A stretch of 22,366 nucleotides of DNA, counting the filler, from an uncultured bacterium (GTDB lineage: Bacteria > JAGOEH01), in NCBI GenBank assembly GCA_964632485.1. It is 10 parts of 10 records of this genome, joined end to end, with 100 filler letters (N's around TTAATTAATTAA, not from the genome) between each part and the next. Parts side by side here need not be neighbours in the genome. Positions count along the whole stretch, not along the records: positions 11,936 to 13,728 come from CAZWDO010000061.1; positions 13,829 to 15,611 come from CAZWDO010000062.1; positions 15,712 to 17,394 come from CAZWDO010000063.1; 7 more parts are not named here. One strand, given 5' to 3'. This document shows positions 4,249 through 22,366 of this stretch, piece by piece. The notes under the pieces were generated by a model. That model did not search any database, had not been told where the DNA came from, and worked only from the letters and a program-made list of their open reading frames with translations. The first letter of the stretch is position 1. Each line of letters begins with the position of its first letter. The translations under genes and the position numbers were made by a program.

Positions 4249-5778
4249 TTAAGCGATAAACCACTCCGCGATATTGCGCGCCTCGCGGGAAAAACCGATG
4301 CCCAACTTCACCACTTCGCGACTGTCGGCCTGCCAGGCAGCGCTATAGCCTTTTTCCTCGATCTGCCGCATGGCTTCCTCGGCTGCGCCCAGCCTAAACT
4401 CCATGATGTAGATGCGCTGCTTCGTTTCGACTACCGCATTGATACGGCCTCGGTGCGTCTGTACCTCGCAGCTCAACCGCACCCCCACCAGCTTCAGTGC
4501 AATGTAAATCACAGACTGATAATAGTACTCCAAATGGTTAATGAATATCTGATAAGGTATGGAGGCAAAGAGCGATTGCAGACCGGAAATGAACAACTCC
4601 ACATTCCCTTCTTCCAAAGCGTCCTCCAACTGGAACACTGCGGCGCCGGTTTCGCTCTGCACCTGATAACTATAGGCTTCAAGCAGATTGTTCAGAAACG
4701 ACACCCGCACCTCTTCGTTGGGATACGACAGATAATAGCGATCCGCTTCCCAATCGATCCGCTTGATGGTCAAATATCCCGTCTGAAACAGTAATGAGTA
4801 GATATCGAGACGCCTAAGCTCGAATTTGTCGAAAAATGATTGGCTCACCGCCAGATTCGAGAGCTTCGCCACTTCGATCTGCCGATCCCGGATCGCTTCC
4901 ACTAAAAACGTCGGCGTGCCCGTGGTAAACCAATAGTTGCGAAACTGTTTAAAACTCAACAGATTCAATATGGAAAATGGATTGTGCAAAAAATCCAAAC
5001 CGCTCCAGGAGTATCCGTTGTACCACATCTTGATTTTAGCGAACAACTCCGCATCACTCAGTTGAAATTTGGCTGCAAGCGCGACGAGGTACTCCCCATA
5101 GAAGCATTCAATCTCCGGCCACGTATAACCGAGCAACTCGTTGTGCTGATCGCTGATCGTGATATCCTGCAGGTTGTTCAGATCGCTGAAGATGGAAACC
5201 TTGCTGAATTTGGAAACGCCGGTCACAAACACAAAGCGCAGATAGCTGTCCAGCCCCTTGATCCCCGAATAAAAATTCTTCAGTATCTCGCGATTGGACT
5301 CGGCCTGATCCAGGTCGGTCAGATAGTCGATGATCGGCTTGTCATACTCGTCGATCAGCAAAACCACTTTCGCCTCGCTGGAAAGCTCTTTCACCAGATA
5401 CATCAGAATATCCTTGGGATCGCTGAAGGGAAGTTCGATCTGATAATCAGCGGCGATTTGTCTGAGGTGTATTTCCAGCCCTTTAGACAAACCATGGGTT
5501 TTATAGTTGACCTGGGAATAATCGATATGGATCACCGGGTGAACCGGCCAGTCAATTTTGTCGTAAATCCAGGTCTCACGAAACAGCTCGCGCTTGCCGC
5601 GGAAAATCTCCCTGAACGTGGAAACCAGCAGGGATTTGCCGAAGCGTCGCGGTCGGGAAAGGAAATAATATTTGCCGGAACTGATCAATTCGTGGACAAG
5701 CTCTGTTTTGTCCACATAGACATAGCCGCCGCCGATCAGTTCCGATAGGGATTGGATGCCGATGCCGAGTTTCTTCAT
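4249..5778 (-). CDS. AAA-ATPase-like + PD-(D/E)xK nuclease family protein, copy 1 (509 aa)
   Basis: Start reassigned to ATG 5778 (MKKLGIGIQ) by match to copy 3. YVDKT, SRPRRFGKS (Walker A), LLIDEYDKP (Walker B), VTGVSKFSKVSIFSDLNNL, LLFQTGYLTI. The nuclease region reads RINAV...MEFR. Confidence 0.9.
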   Translation of the reverse strand: MKKLGIGIQSLSELIGGGYVYVDKTELVHELISSGKYYFLSRPRRFGKSLLVSTFREIFRGKRELFRETWIYDKIDWPVHPVIHIDYSQVNYKTHGLSKGLEIHLRQIAADYQIELPFSDPKDILMYLVKELSSEAKVVLLIDEYDKPIIDYLTDLDQAESNREILKNFYSGIKGLDSYLRFVFVTGVSKFSKVSIFSDLNNLQDITISDQHNELLGYTWPEIECFYGEYLVALAAKFQLSDAELFAKIKMWYNGYSWSGLDFLHNPFSILNLLSFKQFRNYWFTTGTPTFLVEAIRDRQIEVAKLSNLAVSQSFFDKFELRRLDIYSLLFQTGYLTIKRIDWEADRYYLSYPNEEVRVSFLNNLLEAYSYQVQSETGAAVFQLEDALEEGNVELFISGLQSLFASIPYQIFINHLEYYYQSVIYIALKLVGVRLSCEVQTHRGRINAVVETKQRIYIMEFRLGAAEEAMRQIEEKGYSAAWQADSREVVKLGIGFSREARNIAEWFIA

Positions 5779-5784
5779 AATAGT

Positions 5785-5812
5785 AATATAGACGATTTTG
5801 ATTAAAATGCAA
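5785..5812 (-). promoter_or_regulatory. Leaderless-type promoter of copy 1
   Basis: TTGCAT-16-TATATT-6-ATG, with no Shine-Dalgarno. Same layout upstream of copy 3. Confidence 0.65.
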
Positions 5813-5823
5813 GAAAAAAAAGA

Positions 5824-5850
5824 TGGATTCCGGATCAAGTCCGGAATGAC
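5824..5850. repeat. REP-like hairpin between tandem AAA/nuclease genes
   Basis: TGGATTCCGGATCAAGTCCGGAATGAC, same family as 1-205 and 9972-10099. Confidence 0.85.
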
Positions 5851-5874: not shown

Positions 5875-7328
5875 CTAGCCGACAAGCCAGTCGCCGATAT
5901 TGCGGTCCTCGCGCGAAAAACCCACCCCCAGCTTCACCACTTCCCGGCCGTCCGCCTTCCACGCAAGAGCGTAGTCCCGTTCCTCGATCTGCTTCATGGC
6001 TTCTTCCGCCGTCCCCAGCTTGAACTCCATCACATAGACGCGCCGCTTCGTCTCCACCACCGCATCGATCCGCCCTTTGCTCGTTTGGACCTCGCACGCC
6101 AGACGAACGCCCACCAATTTGAGGGCGATATAGATCACCGAGTGGTAATAATACTCCAAATGATCGATGAATATCTGGTACGGAATCGAAGCGAACAACG
6201 ACCGCAGACCGTCAATGAACAACTCCACATTCCCTTCTTCCAAAGCGTCCTCCAACTGGAACACTGCGGCGCCGGTTTCGCTCTGCACCTGATAACTATA
6301 GGCTTCAAGCAGATTGTTCAGAAACGACACCCGCACCTCTTCGTTGGGATACGACAGATAATAGCGATCCGCTTCCCAATCGATCCGCTTGATGGTCAAA
6401 TATCCCGTCTGAAACAGTAATGAGTAGATATCGAGACGCCTAAGCTCGAATTTGTCGAAAAATGATTGGCTCACCGCCAGATTCGAGAGCTTCGCCACTT
6501 CGATCTGCCGATCCCGGATCGCTTCCACTAAAAACGTCGGCGTGCCCGTGGTAAACCAATAGTTGCGAAACTGTTTAAAACTCAACAGATTCAATATGGA
6601 AAATGGATTGTGCAAAAAATCCAAACCGCTCCAGGAGTATCCGTTGTACCACATCTTGATTTTAGCGAACAACTCCGCATCACTCAGTTGAAATTTGGCT
6701 GCAAGCGCGACGAGGTACTCCCCATAGAAGCATTCAATCTCCGGCCACGTATAACCGAGCAACTCGTTGTGCTGATCGCTGATCGTGATATCCTGCAGGT
6801 TGTTCAGATCGCTGAAGATGGAAACCTTGCTGAATTTGGAAACGCCGGTCACAAACACAAAGCGCAGATAGCTGTCCAGCCCCTTGATCCCCGAATAAAA
6901 ATTCTTCAGTATCTCGCGATTGGACTCGGCCTGATCCAGGTCGGTCAGATAGTCGATGATCGGCTTGTCATACTCGTCGATCAGCAAAACCACTTTCGCC
7001 TCGCTGGAAAGTGTCTCGATCAACTCGATCAGTTTCCCGCCATAAGCGGGATTTTTCAGCTCTACCCCATAATCCCCCGCCAATTGATCCAGATAATAAT
7101 GTAAAGCAGGTTCCAGGCCTTGCTCCCGGTACTGGATCTGGGTGAAATCAATATGGATCACCGGGTGAACCGGCCAGTCAATTTTGTCGTAAATCCAGGT
7201 TTCGCTGAACAATTCGCGATTGCCAGTGAAGATTTCCTTGAGAGTGGAAACCAGCAGGGATTTGCCGAAGCGCCGCGGTCGGGAAAGGAAAAAATACCCG
7301 GCAGAACTGAGCAGTTGGTAAATCAGCG
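5875..7328 (-). CDS. AAA-ATPase-like + PD-(D/E)xK nuclease family protein, copy 2 (5' end cut by contig edge)
   Basis: Frame is open to the contig end (LIYQLLSSAGYFFLSRPRRFGKS...). Intact GRIDAV...MEFK nuclease motif. Confidence 0.9.
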
Positions 7329-10110: not shown

Positions 10111-11640
10111 TCAGCCGATGCGCCAGTCGGCGATATTGCGCTGCTCGCGCGAAAAACCGATGCCCAGTTTCACTACCTCGCGTCCGTCTGCCTGGTAGGG
10201 AATGCCGTAACCCTTATCCCCGATCTGCTTGAGCGCCTCATCGGCCGTGCCCATCTTGAACTCCATAACGTAGATGCGCTGCCGGGTCTCGATCACCGCG
10301 TCGATGCGTCCCTTATGCGTCTGCGCCTCACAGGTCAGGCGCACCCCCACCAGTTTCAGCGCAACATAAATCACCGACTGATAGTAATACTCCAACTGCT
10401 CGATGAAAATTTGGTAGGGAATGGAGGCGAACAACGCTTGCAACGCCGAGATGAACAGTTCCATATCGCCGCTCTCCAGGGCATCCTCCATGCGAAAGAT
10501 CATGGCGCCGGTCTCGCTCTGCACCCGATGGCTGAACACTTCCAATAAGTTGCGCAACAAAGACACCCTCACCTCTTCGTTCGGATATGACAGATAATAG
10601 CGATCCGCTTCCCAATCAATCTTCTTGATCGTTAGATACCCGGTCTGGAACAGCAATGAATAGATATCCAGCCGTCGCAGTTCAAATTTGTCGAAAAACG
10701 ACTGGTTGACAATCAAGCGGGAGAGCATGTTCACATCAATATGGCGATCCCGGATCGTTTCGACCAGAAAGGTCGGCGTGCCCGTGGTGAACCAGTAATT
10801 CTGAAATTGACGGGAACTGAGCAGATTCAATATCGAAAATGGATTATAGAGGAAATGCTCGCCATCCCACGAATAGCCATTATACCAGGAGCTGATCCGG
10901 GCGAACAATTCATCCGGGCGGAATTTGAATTTATCAGCCAGCGGTTTGAGATAATCCCCATAAAAATGCTCGATTTCCAGCCACGTATAGCCGAGCAATT
11001 GATTGTAGGGTTCGTTGATTGTGATATCCTGCAGATTGTTCAGATCGCTGAAGATGGAAACCTTGCTGAACTTGGAAACACCGGTTACGAAGACAAAACG
11101 CAACTGCTCGCCCATCCCTTTGATACTTGAATAGAAGCTTTTCAATATCTCGCGGTTGGCTTCGGCTCGGTCAAGATCGCCGAGATAATCGATGATCGGT
11201 TTGTCATATTCGTCGATCAGCAACACGACTTCGGCTTTTTGGTAAAGGAACTCGACTAACTCGATCAATTTTCCCCCATAGGCGGGATTGGTCAATTCAA
11301 TTCCATACGACCTCGCCAATTGATCCAAATAATAGTGCAAGGCAGCCTCCAGACCCCGCTCCCGATATTGAATCCGGGTAAAATCGATATGAATCACCGA
11401 ATGCTCGCGCCACTCGATGCGGTCATAAATCCACATGTCGCGGAAAAGTTCGCGGTTGCCGCTGAAGATTTCCTTGAGCGTGGAGACCAGCAGGGATTTG
11501 CCGAAGCGCCGGGGGCGGGAGAGGAAAAAATACTTGCCGGAACTGATCAGTTGATGAATGAGTTGGGTTTTATCCACATAAACGTAACCGCCAGAGATCA
11601 ACTCCGAAAGGAATTGGATGCCGATGCCGAGTTTCTTCAT
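10111..11640 (-). CDS. AAA-ATPase-like + PD-(D/E)xK nuclease family protein, copy 3 (509 aa, complete)
   Basis: Same motifs as copies 1 and 2. GRIDAV...MEFK intact. Confidence 0.92.
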   Translation of the reverse strand: MKKLGIGIQFLSELISGGYVYVDKTQLIHQLISSGKYFFLSRPRRFGKSLLVSTLKEIFSGNRELFRDMWIYDRIEWREHSVIHIDFTRIQYRERGLEAALHYYLDQLARSYGIELTNPAYGGKLIELVEFLYQKAEVVLLIDEYDKPIIDYLGDLDRAEANREILKSFYSSIKGMGEQLRFVFVTGVSKFSKVSIFSDLNNLQDITINEPYNQLLGYTWLEIEHFYGDYLKPLADKFKFRPDELFARISSWYNGYSWDGEHFLYNPFSILNLLSSRQFQNYWFTTGTPTFLVETIRDRHIDVNMLSRLIVNQSFFDKFELRRLDIYSLLFQTGYLTIKKIDWEADRYYLSYPNEEVRVSLLRNLLEVFSHRVQSETGAMIFRMEDALESGDMELFISALQALFASIPYQIFIEQLEYYYQSVIYVALKLVGVRLTCEAQTHKGRIDAVIETRQRIYVMEFKMGTADEALKQIGDKGYGIPYQADGREVVKLGIGFSREQRNIADWRIG

Positions 11641-12274: not shown

Positions 12275-12682
12275 CGACACTCGCTGACTTTGCTAAAAAA
12301 CGCGGAGAACCACGGTCCGACCAAAATGAAAAAGAACGCATTCAGAATGCTCTTCAACTAAATCAGACACTAACCACTGCTTAATATTATAAAAAAGGAA
12401 CTTGGGCTTTTATTGAAATAGTCCGGCAAAGTGCAAACTCGGCGCTTTTCCCATGATTGGTTAGAAAAAGCTCGGACTTCAGATCTATGGATGTTCGCCG
12501 AGGTTGCTGACACGCTCAGTCGGTTCGCTGAAGAAATCCTGGCTCACTATGATGGATTCTTTTCTACCGATCACCTTGAAGGAATTAATAACAAAATCAA
12601 AACCCACAACCGCGAAGTCTACAGCTATCGCGAAAAAGAATTCCTCAAGCTCCTCATCTATGCAATCCACCAATTTAAATAA
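12275..12682 (+). pseudogene. ISL3-family transposase C-terminal remnant
   Basis: LLKNAEN..., ERIQNALQLNQTLTTA*, and EILAHYDGFFSTDHLEGINNKIKTHNREVYSYREKEFLKLLIY (degenerate EGxNNKIK...AYGFRD motif). Multiple stops and frameshifts. Confidence 0.8.
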
Positions 12683-12786: not shown

Positions 12787-13728
12787 GTAACAGGTCAGGT
12801 CCAATGTAATTTTTTTTTGTAGATAGTCATTTTTATCTGGACTCCGGATGGATAATTTATTATTTTTCCACATGAACGAACCGATAATAGTCCAAACCCG
12901 ATTCTTAAGGCCCGCAGACATTGAATTCATCCAGAGTTTAATCGACGATAATCCCAATTGGAACCGTACCCAATTGTCGCAAGAATTGTGCCGGATATGG
13001 GATTGGAAGACCCCCCGAGGTCAATGGAAAGATATGGCCTGTCGTGAGATGTTGCGTAAGCTGGAGGCTAAGGGACTGCTGCAATTGCCGCCATTGGCTG
13101 GCATCGGCCGCCAGCGTCGTCGGACCTCCTCGTCAGATTCAACGCAACTCCTTTTCGAGACGATGGAGGCGATGCCAACCCCTCCGCTGATCCGACGTTC
13201 GCTTTCGGACCTTCAGCCCCTGCGTTTCGAGCGGGTGGAAGACCCGGCTCAAGCCGCGCTGTTCGGCGACTTGCTGTCCCGGTATCATTATCTGGGGTAT
13301 CGACAGCATGTGGGCGAGCATATGAAGTATCTGGTTTATGATTGCCAGGGAGAGGCGGTATCGTGCCTTCTGTTTGGATCGTCGGCCTGGTCGTGCGCGG
13401 ATCGCGATCGATATATTGGGTGGGATCGGCAGACGCGGATTCGACATTTGCATCTGATGACGAACAATATGCGATTTTTGATTATGCCGTGGCTTCTCTC
13501 GCCGAACCTTGCCAGCCACATGCTGTCGCGGATCGCCCGGCGGATTGGCTCGGACTGGCAATGCAAGTATCGCCATCCGGTGGCGATGCTGGAAACGTTC
13601 GTGGAAACGAATCGGTTTCGGGGCGTTTGCTACCGGGCGGCCAACTGGATTTATGTGGGGCGTACCAAGGGACGCAGCCGTAACGATCGCTACAATCGGC
13701 TCGAAGTTCCCGTGAAAGATATTTATCT
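12787..13728 (+). mobile_element. Left arm of IS66-family element (left IR plus passenger gene)
   Basis: GTAACAGGTCAGGT at 12787 is the reverse complement of the ends at 17328-17339 and 22020-22033. The last 55 nt of the contig equal the first 55 nt of both transposase contigs. Confidence 0.85.
12872..13728 (+). CDS. DUF4338 / Druantia DruA-like protein (3' end continues on contigs starting 15712 and 20853)
   Basis: YHYLGY...GEHMKYLV, FGSSAW...RDRYIGW, NNMRFLIMPW, NLASHMLS, LETFVE...FRGVCYRAANW..VGRTKGR, VPVKDIY. Alternative start at 12848. Confidence 0.85.
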
Positions 13729-13828
13729 NNNNNNNNNNNNNNNNNNNNNNNNNNNNNNNNNNNNNNNNNNNNTTAATTAATTAANNNNNNNNNNNNNNNN
13801 NNNNNNNNNNNNNNNNNNNNNNNNNNNN
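13729..13828. other. Artificial contig linker
   Basis: N44-TTAATTAATTAA-N44. Confidence 0.98.
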
Positions 13829-13841
13829 CGGATATTCTGTT

Positions 13842-13870
13842 TTGACTTTTTAACCGGATTTCATTATGAT
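13842..13870 (+). promoter_or_regulatory. Candidate sigma70 promoter
   Basis: TTGACT-17-TATGAT. Confidence 0.55.
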
Positions 13871-13924
13871 GTAATTGCCGCATTTTCTGTTTAACTCTGA
13901 ACTCATGAAAACCGCAAATTATTT

Positions 13925-13956
13925 GCCGTGTGGCATAAGCTACCCGGCTTTTTTTT
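13925..13956 (+). terminator. Rho-independent terminator
   Basis: GCCGTGTGGC-ATAA-GCTACCCGGC stem (one mismatch, one G-U) followed by T8. Confidence 0.7.
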
Positions 13957-14132
13957 ATTTTTGGGAAGCAGGTCAAATCGTATAATATCAAAATAATATC
14001 AAAGAATCAAATTGTCAAGGAGAAAATCATGTAAGAAAAAAAATTGAAAAAAAGAAAAAGAATATCTATTACCCGTGGACTCCGGGTCAGAGCGCGGCTG
14101 GAGCGCCATGCGAACGCACTCAATTTTTTCGC

Positions 14133-14161
14133 TTGACATGTGTTGCGATCGGCATTATATT
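14133..14161 (+). promoter_or_regulatory. Promoter of the gene at 14200
   Basis: TTGACA-17-TATATT, with GGGAG RBS before ATG 14200. Confidence 0.7.
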
Positions 14162-14199
14162 GACAATGGAACCTACAACCTTCCAGCGGGAGTTTCGCC

Positions 14200-15611
14200 A
14201 TGGCCAAACGCATTCCCTACGGATTGCAATCTTTCACCCAAATCCGCGAACAGAACTGTTATTATATCGATAAAACCCAGTATATAGAAAGACTGGAAAC
14301 GCATGAAAGCTGGTATCCGGTTTTTCTGCGCCCCCGGAAATTCGGCAAATCGCTGTGGATCGACACGCTGGCCGCCTATTACGACATCCGGCGCAAGGAC
14401 GACTTCGAGCGGCTCTTCGGCGATCTCTACATCGGCCGGAACCCCACGCCGCTGCGCAACAGCTATTGCATCCTGCGTTTCAACTTCAGCGGCATCCAGA
14501 CCAGCGACGAAGCATTGCTGAAAAGCGATTTCAGAAATAAACTCATGGTTGCTCTCGATCATTTTTCAACTTATTACAAGCTTCCCACCATGGCTTTCAA
14601 TGAATCCCATGAACCGGCGGCGATACTCAACCGTTTTTTTGAGCATGTAGAAGGAGAATTGGGCAAGCGAAAAATTTATCTCCTGATCGACGAATACGAC
14701 CATTTCGCCAACGAACTGTTCAGTTTCAACTATGAGCTGTTCCGGGATACCGTTTCCAAGACTGGCTTTGTGCGCAAGTTCTACGAAGTGATCAAGGAAG
14801 CGGCGGGCCAGTCCTTGGAGCGCATCTTCATTACCGGTGTCTCGCCCATCACCCTCGACAGCCTCACCAGCGGTTTCAATATCCCCTCGCACCTGACCAC
14901 GAATGCTCAGTTTAACGAAATGATGGGATTTACCGAAGAAGAAGTTCAATACCTGATTGACGACCTGGGCTTCTCCATCGATATTCAGGAGATGCGCGAC
15001 TATTACAACGGCTATCTGTTTTCGCCCGACGCTAGTGTCAGGGTCTATAACAGCGACATGGTTCTCTATTTTCTCAAGGAATACCGGGACAGTCATAAAG
15101 CTCCGGCGGAGGTACTGGATATCAACATCGCCTCGGATCACAAGAAACTGGAACTGATCCTCGAACCAAAAGGGGAGCGGCGGGCGATCCTGGAGCAATT
15201 GCTCTCCGGGGAACCGCTGGCGATCCAACTGACGCGGCTGTTCGATCTGGAAGTGGGGCGCACCCTTGAAGACTACAAGTCCATGCTGTTCTACCTGGGA
15301 TTCGTGACCGTTGTTAGCCGGAAACTGGGATTGGTCTATTTTCAGGTGCCCAATTATGCCATCGGCAATTTATATTTCAGTTTTTTCCGGAGTCTGTTGT
15401 CCCTGCAAGGTCAGCTTAGCTTCAATTCGGTTGAAGTGGAGGAAGCGATCAACCGACTGGCATTGGAAGGAGAGATCACCCCGTTGGCGGCGATTGTTTC
15501 CCAAGCGCTGGCGAAGTATTCGAACCGCGACAGCATTCAGATGAGCGAGAAGCACCTCAAGATGGTGATGATGGCCTATCTGATGTTGAGCAATGCCTAT
15601 ATGGTGTACAG
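14200..15611 (+). CDS. AAA-ATPase-like + PD-(D/E)xK family protein, second subfamily (3' end cut by contig edge)
   Basis: RIPYGLQSF, YYIDKT, LRPRKFGKSL, LLIDEYDHFAN, FITGVSPITLDSLTSGFNI, YYNGYLF, LFYLGFVT. Confidence 0.9.
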
Positions 15612-15711
15612 NNNNNNNNNNNNNNNNNNNNNNNNNNNNNNNNNNNNNNNNNNNNTTAATTAATTAANNNNNNNNNNNNNNNNNNNNNNNNNNNNNNNNN
15701 NNNNNNNNNNN
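15612..15711. other. Artificial contig linker
   Basis: N44-TTAATTAATTAA-N44. Confidence 0.98.
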
Positions 15712-15815
15712 GCAGCCGTAACGATCGCTACAATCGGCTCGAAGTTCCCGTGAAAGATATTTATCTCTTGCCGCTGATCGATGATGCCCGGAAGAAGCTG
15801 CTCCATGGGATTTAA
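15712..15815 (+). CDS. 3' end of DUF4338 gene, variant A
   Basis: ...[26 protein letters not shown] 15813-15815 overlaps the transposase ATG at 15805. Confidence 0.85.
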
Positions 15816-17323
15816 ACGGATCATATCGCGCTGGGCGTCGGGATTCGCGGAAGATGGCGATCGTCGGTTCGACGAACTTCATAGGAACTTGATGGCGCTG
15901 AACGCGACGCTCGGCGCCTTGAGGGACGAGCTTGCGTCGGCAATGAAGGAAATCGAGGAGCTCAAGGCGGAACGGGACCGGTTGCAACAGGAGAATGAAC
16001 GGCTCAAGTCGGCGTTGAAACATGCGGTCGATCAATTGGTCAAAGACAGCCACAACAGCGGTAAGCCGCCGTCATCGGACGGGTTGAAGCGCAAGACGCG
16101 CAGCTTGCGCACCGCTTCGGGCAAGCCCGCGGGCGGGCAGCCGGGCCATGCCGGCCATACGCTCGAATACAATACTTGTCTATCCGCTGACCGAATGCGT
16201 CCACTGCGGCGGTTCGCTGGCGGATACGCCGGTCGATGCCGTGGAGCGTCATCAGGTTTTTGATCTGCCGGTTTTGAAGATCAAGGTGATCGAACATCAG
16301 TCGCACGTCAAGGTCTGCCCCCATTGCCGAAAAAGGAGCCGGGCCGCGTTTCCCGACGAGGCCGCTCATCGGGTTTAATACGGCGCCTCCATTCAAACCC
16401 TGGCCGCGTATCTGTCCAATATGCAGGTGGTTCCCCTCAACCGGATCGCCCTATTTTTCGAGGATCTGTTCGCCATGCCGATCAGCAAGGCCTCGATCAT
16501 CCAATTCAATCGAACCTGCCACCGAAAATTGGCCGACGTCGAAGCGAGGATCGTGGAAACGATTCTCGCCTCCCCGGCGCTTCATGCCGACGAAACCGGT
16601 CTGTATTGTCAGAACAAACGGCAGTGGATGCGCAGTCTGGGCGCCGAGACGGCCACGTATTATGCCAGGCATGAAAAGCGGGGGCGAGCGGCCATAGACG
16701 AAATCGGGATTCTGCCCCGATATCGCGGTATCTTGATGCATGATTTCTGGAAATCGTATCTGGAGTACGAATGCGATCACGCCCTGCGCAATGTCCACCA
16801 TCTGCGCGATCTCAACTTCATCATTGAACAGGACGGCGCGATCTGGGCGGAAAAAATGAAACAACTGTTGCTCGATAGCAAGAAGGCCTTGGACGATCAC
16901 AAAGCCGACGGCGTGTCCGCCGCGCTGGATGACGAGGAACGCCGCTCATTTAACCAACGCTATTGGGAGATCATCAGCGAGGAATTGTCGGATATGCCGC
17001 CGCCTGGTCGGACACCTCCCAAACGGGGTCGAACCAAACAATCCAAATCCAAAAACCTGCTCGACCGGTTCTGCAACTACCGAACCGAAATCCTGCGCTT
17101 CATGGATGATTGGCGCGTTCCCTTCGATAACAATCTCGCTGAACGGGATATTCGAATGGCCAAAGTTAAACAGAAAATTTCCGGCTGCTTTCGAACCCTG
17201 GAGGGAGCTGATCAATTCTGCCGAATTCGCGGCTATATCTCAACGGCCATGAAAAACAACGTCAGCGCATTTCAAGCCCTGCACGGCGTCTTCTCTAATA
17301 ATCCCTTTATCCCATCTTCCTAA
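15805..17323 (+). pseudogene. IS66-family transposase (TnpC-like), copy A
   Basis: Coiled coil, [21 protein letters not shown], CxxC zinc finger, LHADETG, LMHDFW, HHLRDL, PFDNNLAERDIRMAKVKQKISGCFR. Frameshift near 16170 and TAA at 16376-16378. Right IR at 17328-17339. Confidence 0.9.
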
Positions 17324-17339
17324 CCATCTGACCTGTTAC

Positions 17340-19536: not shown

Positions 19537-19716
19537 TTATTCTAAATTCTCTGCACTTAATTGGTTAGCAGGTATCTGTTCTCTCACTGCTGCAGAGAGT
19601 AATTTTACAGCGATGTCACAGATACTTTGATGTGATATAGGATCTAATTTACAATTTACTTGTAATAAAGGATTAGATAAATTGATTATTAGCGCAAAAA
19701 CAGAAAGAATTGATGA
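19537..19716 (-). CDS. C-terminus of a second ring-like protein (rest lost in the 10-N gap)
   Basis: NCKLDPISHQSICDIAVKLLSAAVREQIPANQL repeats the C-terminus of the upstream gene, with many substitutions. Confidence 0.5.
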   Translation of the reverse strand, partial: SSILSVFALIINLSNPLLQVNCKLDPISHQSICDIAVKLLSAAVREQIPANQLSAENLE

Positions 19717-19726
19717 NNNNNNNNNN

Positions 19727-20472
19727 AAAACATCTGCTGTGAGTTGGTTAATTGGTATTTGTTCTCTTACTGCAGCAGACAGTAATTTTACAGCAATATC
19801 ACAAATTCCTTGATGAGTTAGAGGATCTAATTCACAATTAGTTTGTAATGTTGAATTATTAAGATTTACAACTATATCATTAGGGTATCTTAAATACCTT
19901 AAATAATATTCAGTTACTCTAAATGTTCCATCATCAATAATACCATGGATTTTTCTTTCAACACCATTAACAGTTTTTTTACCATGTTCTATTCTCCACA
20001 CAAGACCTTCACTACCATTACAGTATGGCCTTTTATAAGGATTAGCATAACTTAAGTTATAATCATCATGTGAGATAGGAATAGTCATCATTCTGTTATA
20101 TGTAGAAGTAGTTCCACATTGAGGAATATTTGTAACAGTAGATTCATATATAGGTATCATAAAATCAACTGGCAATGCCCAGAGTTTTTCTCCAGGCAAA
20201 GTACCAGTTTGATCTATAGGTTGTAACTCAAATACAGGTGGAACAGCGTCTTGTGAATCTTTAACTAAAGCTGATAAACCTTGGATTCTTATTTCAGTTT
20301 CTTCAAACCCTTCCATGTTTCTGTTACTCTTAGGGTTTAACCTTTGAAGAATATAGTACCATTGTGCTTTAGTTAATAGAATAGTTGCCTCAGCATCTTC
20401 AAACCCAGGTGCACTTTGTGAATATAGTGCATCATAGGTTACAAGAACATCCCACATCTGATTAGCTGTCAT
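19727..20472 (-). CDS. crAss-like phage tail ring / head-tail connector-like protein
   Basis: SQSAPGFEDAEATILLTKAQ...NPKSNRNMEGFEETE.R...LSALV, NPYKRP, YYLRYLRYP, CELDP..H..I.D.AV match my recollection of Crassvirales ring proteins. AAGGAG RBS. Confidence 0.65.
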
Positions 20473-20852: not shown

Positions 20853-20956
20853 GCAGCCGTAACGATCGCTACAATCGGCTCGAAGTTCCCGTGAAAGATA
20901 TTTATCTGTTGCCCCTGATCGATGAAGCCCGGGAGAAGCTTATCCATGGGATTTAA
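20853..20956 (+). CDS. 3' end of DUF4338 gene, variant B
   Basis: ...[23 protein letters not shown]. Overlaps the transposase ATG at 20946. Confidence 0.85.
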
Positions 20957-22017
20957 GCGGATCATATCACGCTTGACGCCGAAATTCGCGGGAGATAGCG
21001 ACCGGCGATTCGATGCGCTCCATCAGGACTGGATGGCGATGAGCGAGAAGCTCGGCGCCTTGAGCGACGAGCTTGCCTCGGCGCTGAAGGAGATAGAAGA
21101 GCTCAAGGCGGAACGGAATCGGTTGCTGGAGGAGAATGAACGGCTCAAGTCGGCGTTTAAATATGCGGGCGATCAATTGGCGAAAGACAGCCACAATAGC
21201 GGCAAGCCGCCGGCATCGGACGGTTTGAAGCGGAAGACGCGCAGTTTGCGAACCTCTTCGGGTAAGTCTTCGGGCGGGCAGCCGGGCCATGCCGGTCATA
21301 CGCTCGATCTGGTGGAGCAACCGGACGAGATCATCCCGCATACATTGTCTGTGTGCGTCCATTGCGGCGCGTCGCTGGCCGAAGTCCCGGTAGAGAGTGT
21401 CGAACGCCATCAAATTTTTGACTTGCCGGTTTTGAAGATAAAGGTGACCGAACACCAGTCGGAAGTCAAGGTATGCCCCCATTGCCAAAAAAGGAACCGG
21501 GCCGCTTTTCCCGAAGAGGCCACCCATCGGGTTCAATATGGCGCCTCTATCAAAACGATGGCCACTTACCTGTCCAATATGCAGTTGATTCCCCTGAACC
21601 GCATCGTCCACTTTTTTCTGGATTTGTTCGCTATGCCGATCAGCAAGGCCTCGATTATCCAATTCAATCGAACCTGCCACCAAAAATTGGCCGACGCCTG
21701 CGGTGAAATCCCCAAAACGGGGTCGAACCAAACAATCCAAATCCAAAAACCTGCTTGACCGGTTCTGTAACTACCGAACGGAAATACTGCGCTTCATGGA
21801 TGATTGGCGCGTTCCCTTCGACAATAATCTGGCGGAACGGGATATTCGCATGGCCAAAGTTAAACAGAAAATTTCCGGATGCTTTCGAACCGAGGCTGGA
21901 GCCGATCACTTCTGCCGAATTCGCGGCTATATCTCAACGGCTATGAAAAATAATGTCAGCGCTTATCAAGCTCTACACGACCTATTCTCTAATAACCCCT
22001 TTATCCCCTCATTTTAA
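20946..22017 (+). pseudogene. IS66-family transposase, copy B, with internal deletion
   Basis: Colinear with copy A but lacks the equivalent of 16539-17002 (464 bp, including the DETG and HD motifs), causing a frameshift at about 21696. Right IR at 22020-22033. Confidence 0.9.
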
Positions 22018-22236
22018 TCACCTGACCTGTTACAATTTTATTATATAAGATGACACTATACCAGAGACATAACAAACCGGAAACCAATCCGAATATTAAA
22101 AAGATGGTTGCCGGGTAGTCGCTAAAACACTTCATCCCCAACCCAAGCAGGAATATATGTGGCTGAAAATAAATGCTTGGTGATTCAGGAGTATAAGAGA
22201 AGGGCAAAGAATAAAAAATATCCAACTGTTCTGAAT

Positions 22237-22350
22237 TGTCAGGGGCCACATGAATTCCCCACTTTTTAGCCCGTTAGGGTCAGCAGTATTCCCCACCCGT
22301 AGGGTCAAAGGAATTCCCCAGTCTCAGGGTCAAAGCAATTCCCCACTTTT
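22237..22350. mobile_element. IS21-family terminal repeats (probably two abutting ends)
   Basis: TGTCAGGGGCCACATGAATTCCCCAC begins with TG. AGGGTCA-N5-ATTCCCCA recurs at 22276, 22301 and 22326 (25-bp period). Reiterated ATTCCCCA boxes are typical of IS21 ends. Confidence 0.65.
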
Positions 22351-22366
22351 TCACATCGTTTGTTAA

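Follow-up and report, generated by a model that had tools for sequence, protein, structure and literature searches.

A DUF4338 gene in an IS66-family insertion sequence from an uncultured bacterium, and its association with DDE transposases

What role could a Mom-like enzyme domain have for DDE transposons? The question is raised by a DUF4338 gene in the genome assembly of an uncultured bacterium of the GTDB lineage JAGOEH01 (GenBank GCA_964632485.1), of which we analysed a stretch of 22,366 nucleotides (nt), hereafter the window, made up of ten contigs of 3660 down to 1514 base pairs (bp) with 100-N linkers between them. Here, a DUF4338 gene follows the left terminal inverted repeat (IR) of an IS66-family insertion sequence (IS) and appears to run into the gene of its transposase, and in the sampled relatives the same kind of gene is found next to, or fused to, transposases of several DDE families. 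We consider it probable that the DUF4338 protein is a portable module that works with DDE transposases in transposition, and is not anti-phage cargo. The element is then one example of a very widespread and apparently undescribed kind of insertion sequence.

An IS66-family element in three contigs

The element is distributed over contig 5, which ends at 13728, contig 7, which starts at 15712, and contig 10, which starts at 20853 (Table 1). As the original prediction had it, contig 5 carries the left IR, GTAACAGGTCAGGT, followed by the DUF4338 open reading frame (ORF), with an IR-to-ATG distance of only 60 nt, and contigs 7 and 10 each carry the end of a DUF4338 gene, a transposase gene and a right IR. 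The transposase ATG (at 15805 and 20946) overlaps the DUF4338 stop by 11 nt on both contigs, and both transposase arms end in CTGACCTGTTAC, at 17339 and 22033, which likewise reproduces what had been described. The two arms are ∼88% identical, with homology stopping exactly at these termini, and the reverse complement of the left IR agrees with the right ends at 13/14 (contig 7) and 14/14 (contig 10) positions.

Members of the IS66 family have terminal IRs that begin with GTAA, an 8-bp target-site duplication and a canonical tnpA-tnpB-tnpC gene set, of which the ISBst12 subgroup keeps tnpC only. The predicted assignment of the element to this family is borne out by matches to PF03050, zf-IS66, DUF6444 and NF033517, and the window element shares with the family a DDE transposase with a coiled-coil N-terminus, an IS66 zinc finger and a DDE_Tnp_IS66 core, termini starting with GTAA and, in its relatives, 8-bp duplications. 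It also resembles ISBst12-type elements in that the window copy has neither tnpA nor tnpB: no tnpA- or tnpB-like match was obtained by tblastn upstream of the DUF4338 ORF or elsewhere outside it. What sets it apart from the family is an extra 0.9-kb gene upstream of tnpC, whose product is predicted to be a winged-helix-like and Mom-like GNAT protein. A tblastn match to IS66 TnpB within the DUF4338 ORF (E 0.005) was dismissed as chance, profile comparison with hhalign giving a probability of 0.9%, and we regard DUF4338 and TnpB as unrelated.

Both transposase copies in the window are pseudogenes. Relative to contig 10, the contig-7 copy has a 17-nt deletion after 16166, which shifts the frame, and a TAA at 16376-16378; its fragments match DDE_Tnp_IS66 (PF03050, E 1.2e-41), NF033517 (209 bits, cut-off 180) and zf-IS66 (E 6e-10). 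In the contig-10 copy, which in alignment to contig 7 lacks 464 nt of the catalytic core, the ORFs at 20922-21758 and 21703-22017 correspond to the N-terminal and C-terminal parts of NF033517 and PF03050. The proposal of two variants with the same layout stands for the ORF end, the transposase and the right IR, but in both variants the transposase is dead. In a separate sample (runs X2 and X3), Logan contigs that are ∼97% identical over 15712-16764 carry the 17 nt missing from contig 7 as well as a C at 16376; an intact close relative therefore exists. No near-identical intact copy was met in the genome and metagenome scans, which reached at most 53% identity; one 97%-identical protein of 204 aa, P0003, could not be placed on DNA.

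As stated before, the last 55 nt of contig 5 (13674-13728) recur without a mismatch at 15712-15766 and 20853-20907, and from the very next base onwards contigs 7 and 10 differ. We take this identity to be an assembler k-mer overlap, as would be left by a de Bruijn assembler (k=55) at a branch, and when the ends of all ten contigs are compared, 5→7 and 5→10 are the sole links of this type. The join is therefore an ambiguous graph adjacency and not determined sequence. The DUF4338 ORF stays in frame over both joins for 17 codons, up to a TAA, and this tail aligns to the C-terminal tails of full-length relatives; in addition, single contigs of X2 and X3 pass through 15712 and reach 322 and 769 nt further left. 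The claim that the element can be reconstructed across contigs is in this sense partly verified, with the in-frame ORF and the X2/X3 contigs in its favour and the join itself known as graph adjacency only. Joining contigs 5 and 7 gives 2515 bp, in agreement with the ∼2.5 kb predicted, and joining contigs 5 and 10 gives 2068 bp; an intact copy would be ∼2.53 kb long.

As had also been noticed, the 8 nt left of the element match neither right flank. No two of the three flanks (AAATTAAA, GAAGATTT and AATTTTAT) are the same; neither right end shares a target-site duplication with the left one, so the ends in the window belong to different copies. We therefore see in the window the pieces of at least two, and probably at least three, decayed copies of a two-gene IS66-family IS. 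Beyond 17339, three runs show three different flanks, and one common, empty-site-like sequence is found before 17340 in X1, X2 and X3; together, these fix the right boundary and indicate insertion polymorphism.

Table 1. Positions of the parts of the element, and of one flanking gene, along the window.
Feature	Position	Strand	Remarks
Left terminal inverted repeat GTAACAGGTCAGGT	12787..12800	+	Read directly; consistent with GTAAC...TCAGGT termini in related elements
DUF4338 gene, first 293 codons, cut by contig end	12848..13728	+	PF14236 (DUF4338/DruA), E 2.7e-34; intact as far as the contig reaches
55-nt assembler overlap linking contig 5 to contigs 7 and 10	13674..13728	+	Identity ends at exactly 55 nt
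DUF4338 gene 3' end, contig-7 variant	15712..15815	+	Stop TAA 15813-15815
IS66-family transposase tnpC, contig-7 copy, pseudogene	15805..17323	+	Three ORF fragments: DUF6444, zf-IS66, DDE_Tnp_IS66
Right terminal inverted repeat, contig 7 (ATCTGACCTGTTAC)	17326..17339	+	Homology to contig 10 stops at 17339
DUF4338 gene 3' end, contig-10 variant	20853..20956	+	Stop TAA 20954-20956
IS66-family transposase, contig-10 copy, pseudogene	20946..22017	+	464 nt deleted internally, near 21694/21695
Right terminal inverted repeat, contig 10 (ACCTGACCTGTTAC)	22020..22033	+	Perfect complement of left IR
ISL3 transposase gene, C-terminal remnant, outside the element	12431..12682	+	PF01610, E 1e-11

DUF4338 genes and their partner transposases

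The family is large, with 12,411 representatives at 50% identity matching the family profile and 5,176 clusters at 90% identity. Pattern scans returned 585 relatives from species-representative genomes and a further 597 from metagenome contigs; of each set we examined the best 80. These relatives are 38-53% identical and come from lineages ranging from Bathyarchaeia to Bacillota, Verrucomicrobiota, Acidobacteriota and Planctomycetota. Twelve of the 160 loci, with <600 nt of downstream sequence, were set aside. Among the remaining 148, a DDE transposase adjoins the DUF4338 gene in 143, and in 123 the gene immediately downstream, on the same strand, encodes an IS66-type transposase, so that the layout predicted from the window recurs widely. 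The other 20 have an ISKra4-like, IS4, IS701 or IS1182-like (below cut-off) transposase, or an IS66 transposase upstream or on the opposite strand; the ISKra4-like group comprises nine loci, of which three exceed the NCBIfam cut-off, four fall short of it and two are recognised by weak Pfam UPF0236 matches alone.

Where identical copies occur within one genome, they share a unit of 2381-2495 bp that extends from shortly before the DUF4338 gene to shortly past tnpC. GTAAC-type IRs with exact 8-bp duplications were found at L004, L025, L026 and L044, and, in a second analysis, at L008, L014, L026, L029 and L157; from the latter we used only pairs with 0 or 1 mismatches, as its IR finder is crude and yields many chance pairs at 2 mismatches. 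Because multi-copy units with IRs and 8-bp duplications enclose it, the DUF4338 gene lies inside the element, directly upstream of and overlapping the transposase gene in the window, as had been proposed. The numbers of PF14236 matches in five genomes are 8, 3, 74, 17 and 1, against 0 in 14 control genomes.

The suggestion that the DUF4338 gene stands in place of tnpA and tnpB describes the window copy, which has neither, but fails as a rule for the family. ORFs resembling tnpA and tnpB are found immediately upstream of DUF4338 in 57/160 loci, the order tnpA-tnpB-DUF4338-tnpC is seen in 55 of the 123 IS66-linked loci, and all seven tnpB-like ORFs tested against PF05717 match it. No tnpB is present in 37 loci despite sufficient upstream sequence, as in the window, and in 31 the upstream sequence is too short to tell. 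In IS66 elements, DUF4338 is thus an add-on and no general replacement of tnpA/tnpB. The coupling to the transposase gene is frequently tight: in 70 of 122 loci, its first start codon overlaps the DUF4338 stop or lies ≤20 nt away, with ATGA overlaps in 28 of these 70, while the spacing is ambiguous in 37/122 and larger in 15/122.

In longer relatives, the two proteins are joined into one. A DDE transposase Pfam domain is present in 96 of 97 relatives of 514-2000 aa, where it is Tn5-type in 47, DDE_5 in 29, DDE_Tnp_1 in 11, ISAs1-type in 5 and IS66 in 4. Fused ORFs of 765-792 aa form sets of identical copies in closed genomes, and one DUF4338::ISAs1 fusion is a single coding sequence on a plasmid annotated by the Prokaryotic Genome Annotation Pipeline (PGAP). 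A variant of this arrangement is seen at two loci of one genome with ∼35 copies (L166 and L171, genome G003), in which DUF4338 is fused to an ISAs1-type N-terminal domain and the DDE domain follows in the next frame; the frame break may reflect programmed frameshifting, or else a defect common to the copies of an element that has been highly amplified.

In a quick maximum-likelihood tree built from 158 DUF4338 sequences, the type of partner requires at least 29 changes against a minimum of 7, and two proteins from one bacterial family, one of them IS4-linked and the other IS66-linked, are sisters (SH-aLRT, the Shimodaira-Hasegawa-like approximate likelihood ratio test, 98). The module is accordingly not tied to IS66, its partners including also IS4, IS701, ISKra4, IS1182-like and ISAs1 transposases. 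Structure prediction of a complex between the transposase and the DUF4338 protein of locus L014 returned scores of 0.00 and 0.00, which is evidence neither way.

The gene is under purifying selection about as strong as that on the transposase: the ratio of nonsynonymous to synonymous substitution rates (dN/dS), a check proposed with the original prediction, is 0.07-0.27 for DUF4338 and 0.11-0.39 for the transposase (Nei-Gojobori; 8 informative pairs of 9 tried). In one Verrucomicrobiae genome (L021, L022 and L013), two pairs of copies show synonymous distances that differ more than tenfold between the two genes, and do so in opposite directions. The disagreement points to recombination among IS copies, by which DUF4338 and transposase are reshuffled, and it fits the window, in which a single DUF4338 arm leads to two variants of the transposase.

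Fold of the protein and its possible role

The AlphaFold2 model of the window DUF4338 protein (pLDDT 84.6, a predicted score of the local distance difference test) comprises a domain of three helices at the N-terminus (residues 13-74), a disordered linker (87-106) and a C-terminal domain (119-293) that, in the model, adopts a GNAT fold. Its top match in Foldseek is the Mom protein of phage Mu (8bv8, E 4.5e-5), and Mom is again first in an exhaustive VIA-align search (Z 13.2, root-mean-square deviation 2.9 over 149 residues). A search of the PDB with the family profile gave no match at E ≤1. In a Pfam scan of 49 family members, Mom (PF25680) is the sole other enzyme family that recurs, with sub-threshold matches in 37 of them (best E 3e-4), and hhalign aligns DUF4338 to the Mom family over 114 columns (E 6.6e-4). 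One passage on DndF fusions speaks of DUF4338 as a GNAT-like acetyltransferase domain (PMC10853773), while the accessible part of the YprA/Druantia preprint says nothing on the fold of DruA.

According to the Mom study, Mom carries out Gly-tRNA-dependent N6-carbamoylmethylation of adenine in DNA, with H58, Y59, R111, S124, D149, R151 and Y159 as active-site residues (PMC13219725). The hhalign alignment, for which the offset in residue numbering was checked against the Mu protein, pairs H147/Y148, S223, E253 and Y262 of DUF4338 with H58/Y59, S124, D149 and Y159 of Mom; 5/7 active-site residues are thereby aligned to identical or similar conserved residues, and H147/Y148, S223, E/D253 and Y262 are near-invariant in the family. 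The N-terminal domain, with a pLDDT of 77.8 when folded alone, is weakly winged-helix-like, a hint that also comes from HTH_32 matches in 10 of the 49 members (E 0.017 or weaker). The likeness to Mom consists in a GNAT fold, in the best structural match from two independent aligners and in these aligned motifs; DUF4338 proteins differ from Mom in falling below the Pfam threshold, in their extra, putatively winged-helix-like domain and in being encoded in insertion sequences, not in phages.

Put together, the element would encode, between GTAAC... IRs, a protein of ∼310 aa with a winged-helix-like and a DUF4338 domain, followed by an IS66-type DDE transposase whose start codon, by overlapping the stop of the first gene, may couple the translation of the two. 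The putative GNAT-fold enzyme domain, with Mom as its closest solved relative, occurs in three arrangements: as a separate, coupled gene (in two-gene and four-gene IS66, ISKra4-like, IS1182-like, IS701 and IS4 elements), as an N-terminal fusion to the transposase (IS4/Tn5-like, IS701-like and ISAs1) and, occasionally, downstream of the transposase. The architecture, the place of the gene inside the IRs, the purifying selection on it, the fusions and the fold are matters of observation. From them we infer that DUF4338 is putatively catalytic and that, to the benefit of transposition, it would act on nucleic acid at the transposition complex or close to it, for example by marking the ends of the element or the target DNA.

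Several points weigh against this reading. The putative link between DUF4338 and transposition comes from sequence and models, and the window lends no evidence of activity, as both its transposases are dead; the continuation of contig 5 into contig 7 or 10 depends on the 55-mer and on the leftward extensions of X2 and X3. Five of the 148 loci have no adjacent transposase, and at one locus (L023:2689-4113) a C5 cytosine DNA methyltransferase gene takes the place of the transposase, following the DUF4338 gene with a 4-nt overlap. The relation to Mom is remote: other GNATs reach Z 11.9 in VIA-align, a margin of only 1.3, the window protein scores 14.9 bits for Pfam Mom against a gathering cut-off of 27.1, the hhalign probability is only 27%, and no DUF4338 residue aligns cleanly with R111 or R151 of Mom. 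For the N-terminal domain, the matches to winged-helix DNA-binding domains are weak (Z ≤5.8). Finally, the swapping of the module among six transposase families could equally be that of self-serving cargo that makes no contact with the transposase.

That last thought leads to the main rival, in which a Mom-like enzyme is a passenger that modifies the DNA of host or vehicle generally, for example shielding IS-bearing plasmids or chromosomes against restriction or other DNA-targeting immunity, and has no part in the transposition reaction. It would account for Mom being the closest solved structure with largely conserved catalytic residues, for the movement of the gene among six transposase families, as a self-sufficient passenger could achieve, and for the pairing with a C5 DNA methyltransferase at L023. 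We nevertheless consider it unlikely: nearly all of the longer relatives are fused to a transposase, and a scarce protein acting in cis would be an odd genome-wide modifier; tight overlaps with the transposase start are common; and, although Mom is a phage gene, no DUF4338 relative was found in 50,697 phage records. Defence genes are often carried by mobile elements, and the original prediction had allowed for the DUF4338 gene as stand-alone defence cargo; in this rival, a stand-alone or Druantia-type anti-phage gene would ride on the IS. The Pfam family does bear the name DruA, and one fused relative, a 586-aa protein with PF14236 and an IS66 DDE domain (P0303), is named 'Druantia anti-phage system protein DruA' by NCBI. 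Yet the PADLOC DruA model (PDLC00002), a profile of 407 positions, matches only 48 residues of the window protein (155-202, E 3.7e-4), which has no NCBIfam match; the window has no druB-E, and no Druantia component was detected among 40 flanking ORFs of ≥450 aa scanned from 48 loci of ≥7 kb, a scan that left out 46 other ORFs of ≥450 aa in these loci, mostly adjacent transposase genes and overlapping ORFs. Up to 74 matches in a single genome are, moreover, the behaviour of an IS and unlike that of defence islands. Given these negatives for Druantia and phages, the fusions, the coupling and the IS-like copy numbers, a role tied to the transposase is favoured, and defence cargo, already disfavoured, appears improbable.

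Less probable still is an artefact in which the shared 55-mer arose by chance or contigs of different organisms were binned together, so that no such element exists in this genome. The window does consist of short contigs strung together, contig 5 leads to two alternative partners, and its left end forms a target-site duplication with neither right end; set against this, the ORF stays in frame over both joins and enters a tail homologous to that of full-length relatives, 123 other loci show this layout without interruption, and the single contigs of X2 and X3, from an independent sample, extend leftwards past 15712.

Beyond the reading of a module that works with DDE transposases, a bolder one is conceivable, which we entertain only tentatively: DUF4338 would be a nucleic-acid-modifying acyltransferase of the Mom type, possibly dependent on aminoacyl-tRNA, which DDE transposases of six or more unrelated families would have recruited repeatedly, either fused at the N-terminus or as a coupled gene, and which would chemically mark element ends or targets during transposition. 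DruA of type I Druantia would then be an offshoot of the transposon module, and the IS proteins would not be defence genes by origin. If true, it would amount to self-encoded epigenetic control of transposition.

Insertion sequences with accessory or regulatory arrangements are known, among them TnpB in IS66, IstB in IS21 and the control of IS10 and IS50 by Dam. The DUF4338 gene resembles IS66 TnpB and IS21 IstB in providing a second function co-encoded or coupled with the transposase. With Dam control of IS10 it shares, as an idea only, that a mark on DNA could gate transposition; in contrast to Dam control of IS10 and IS50, the putative marking enzyme would here be encoded by the element and common to six transposase families. 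DruA of type I Druantia belongs to the same Pfam family, PF14236; unlike it, the IS proteins lack druB-E neighbours, are linked or fused to transposases and, at ∼300 aa, match the longer DruA profile weakly and in part.

Our literature search found no paper linking DUF4338, PF14236 or DruA with transposases; ISfinder, TnPedia, IS66 reviews and supplementary files lay outside this search, so the architecture may already carry an IS name. While the family is labelled after an anti-phage protein, its sampled members are overwhelmingly parts of insertion sequences, and transposons are likely to inflate any defence census based on 'DruA' or PF14236. That a domain resembling a DNA-hypermodifying enzyme is conserved under purifying selection and swapped among six transposase families points to an unstudied step or control in DDE transposition.

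Other features of the window

The contigs of the window are rich in repeated and mobile genes. The ISL3 transposase remnant in the left flank consists of the C-terminal 83 aa and ends ∼105 nt before the left IR of the IS66-type element, one IS having landed beside another. A DDE_Tnp_1/DDE_Tnp_1_6 transposase gene stands alone on a short contig (8029-9240, minus strand). Four paralogous genes encode AAA-ATPase_like (PF09820) and PD-(D/E)XK (PF08011, PDDEXK_9) domains (4249-5835, 5875-7209 and 10111-11637 on the minus strand, and 14200-15611 on the plus strand); they are 75-90% identical in stretches, and these paralogues are probably the reason for the contig breaks in the assembly.

Contig 9 encodes a crAss-like phage tail ring protein 3/4 (19537-20469, minus strand; PF25710, E 1.7e-26) and has a G+C content of 26-36%, much below that of the other contigs; it possibly comes from a phage and was placed in the bin of this genome. 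Two sets of short repeats were also recorded (26-205 and 22243-22351): a 75-nt tandem repeat of 2.4 copies at 94% identity, and 25-nt units (GGGTCAAAG.AATTCCCCA...) repeated three to four times just right of the contig-10 IS copy.

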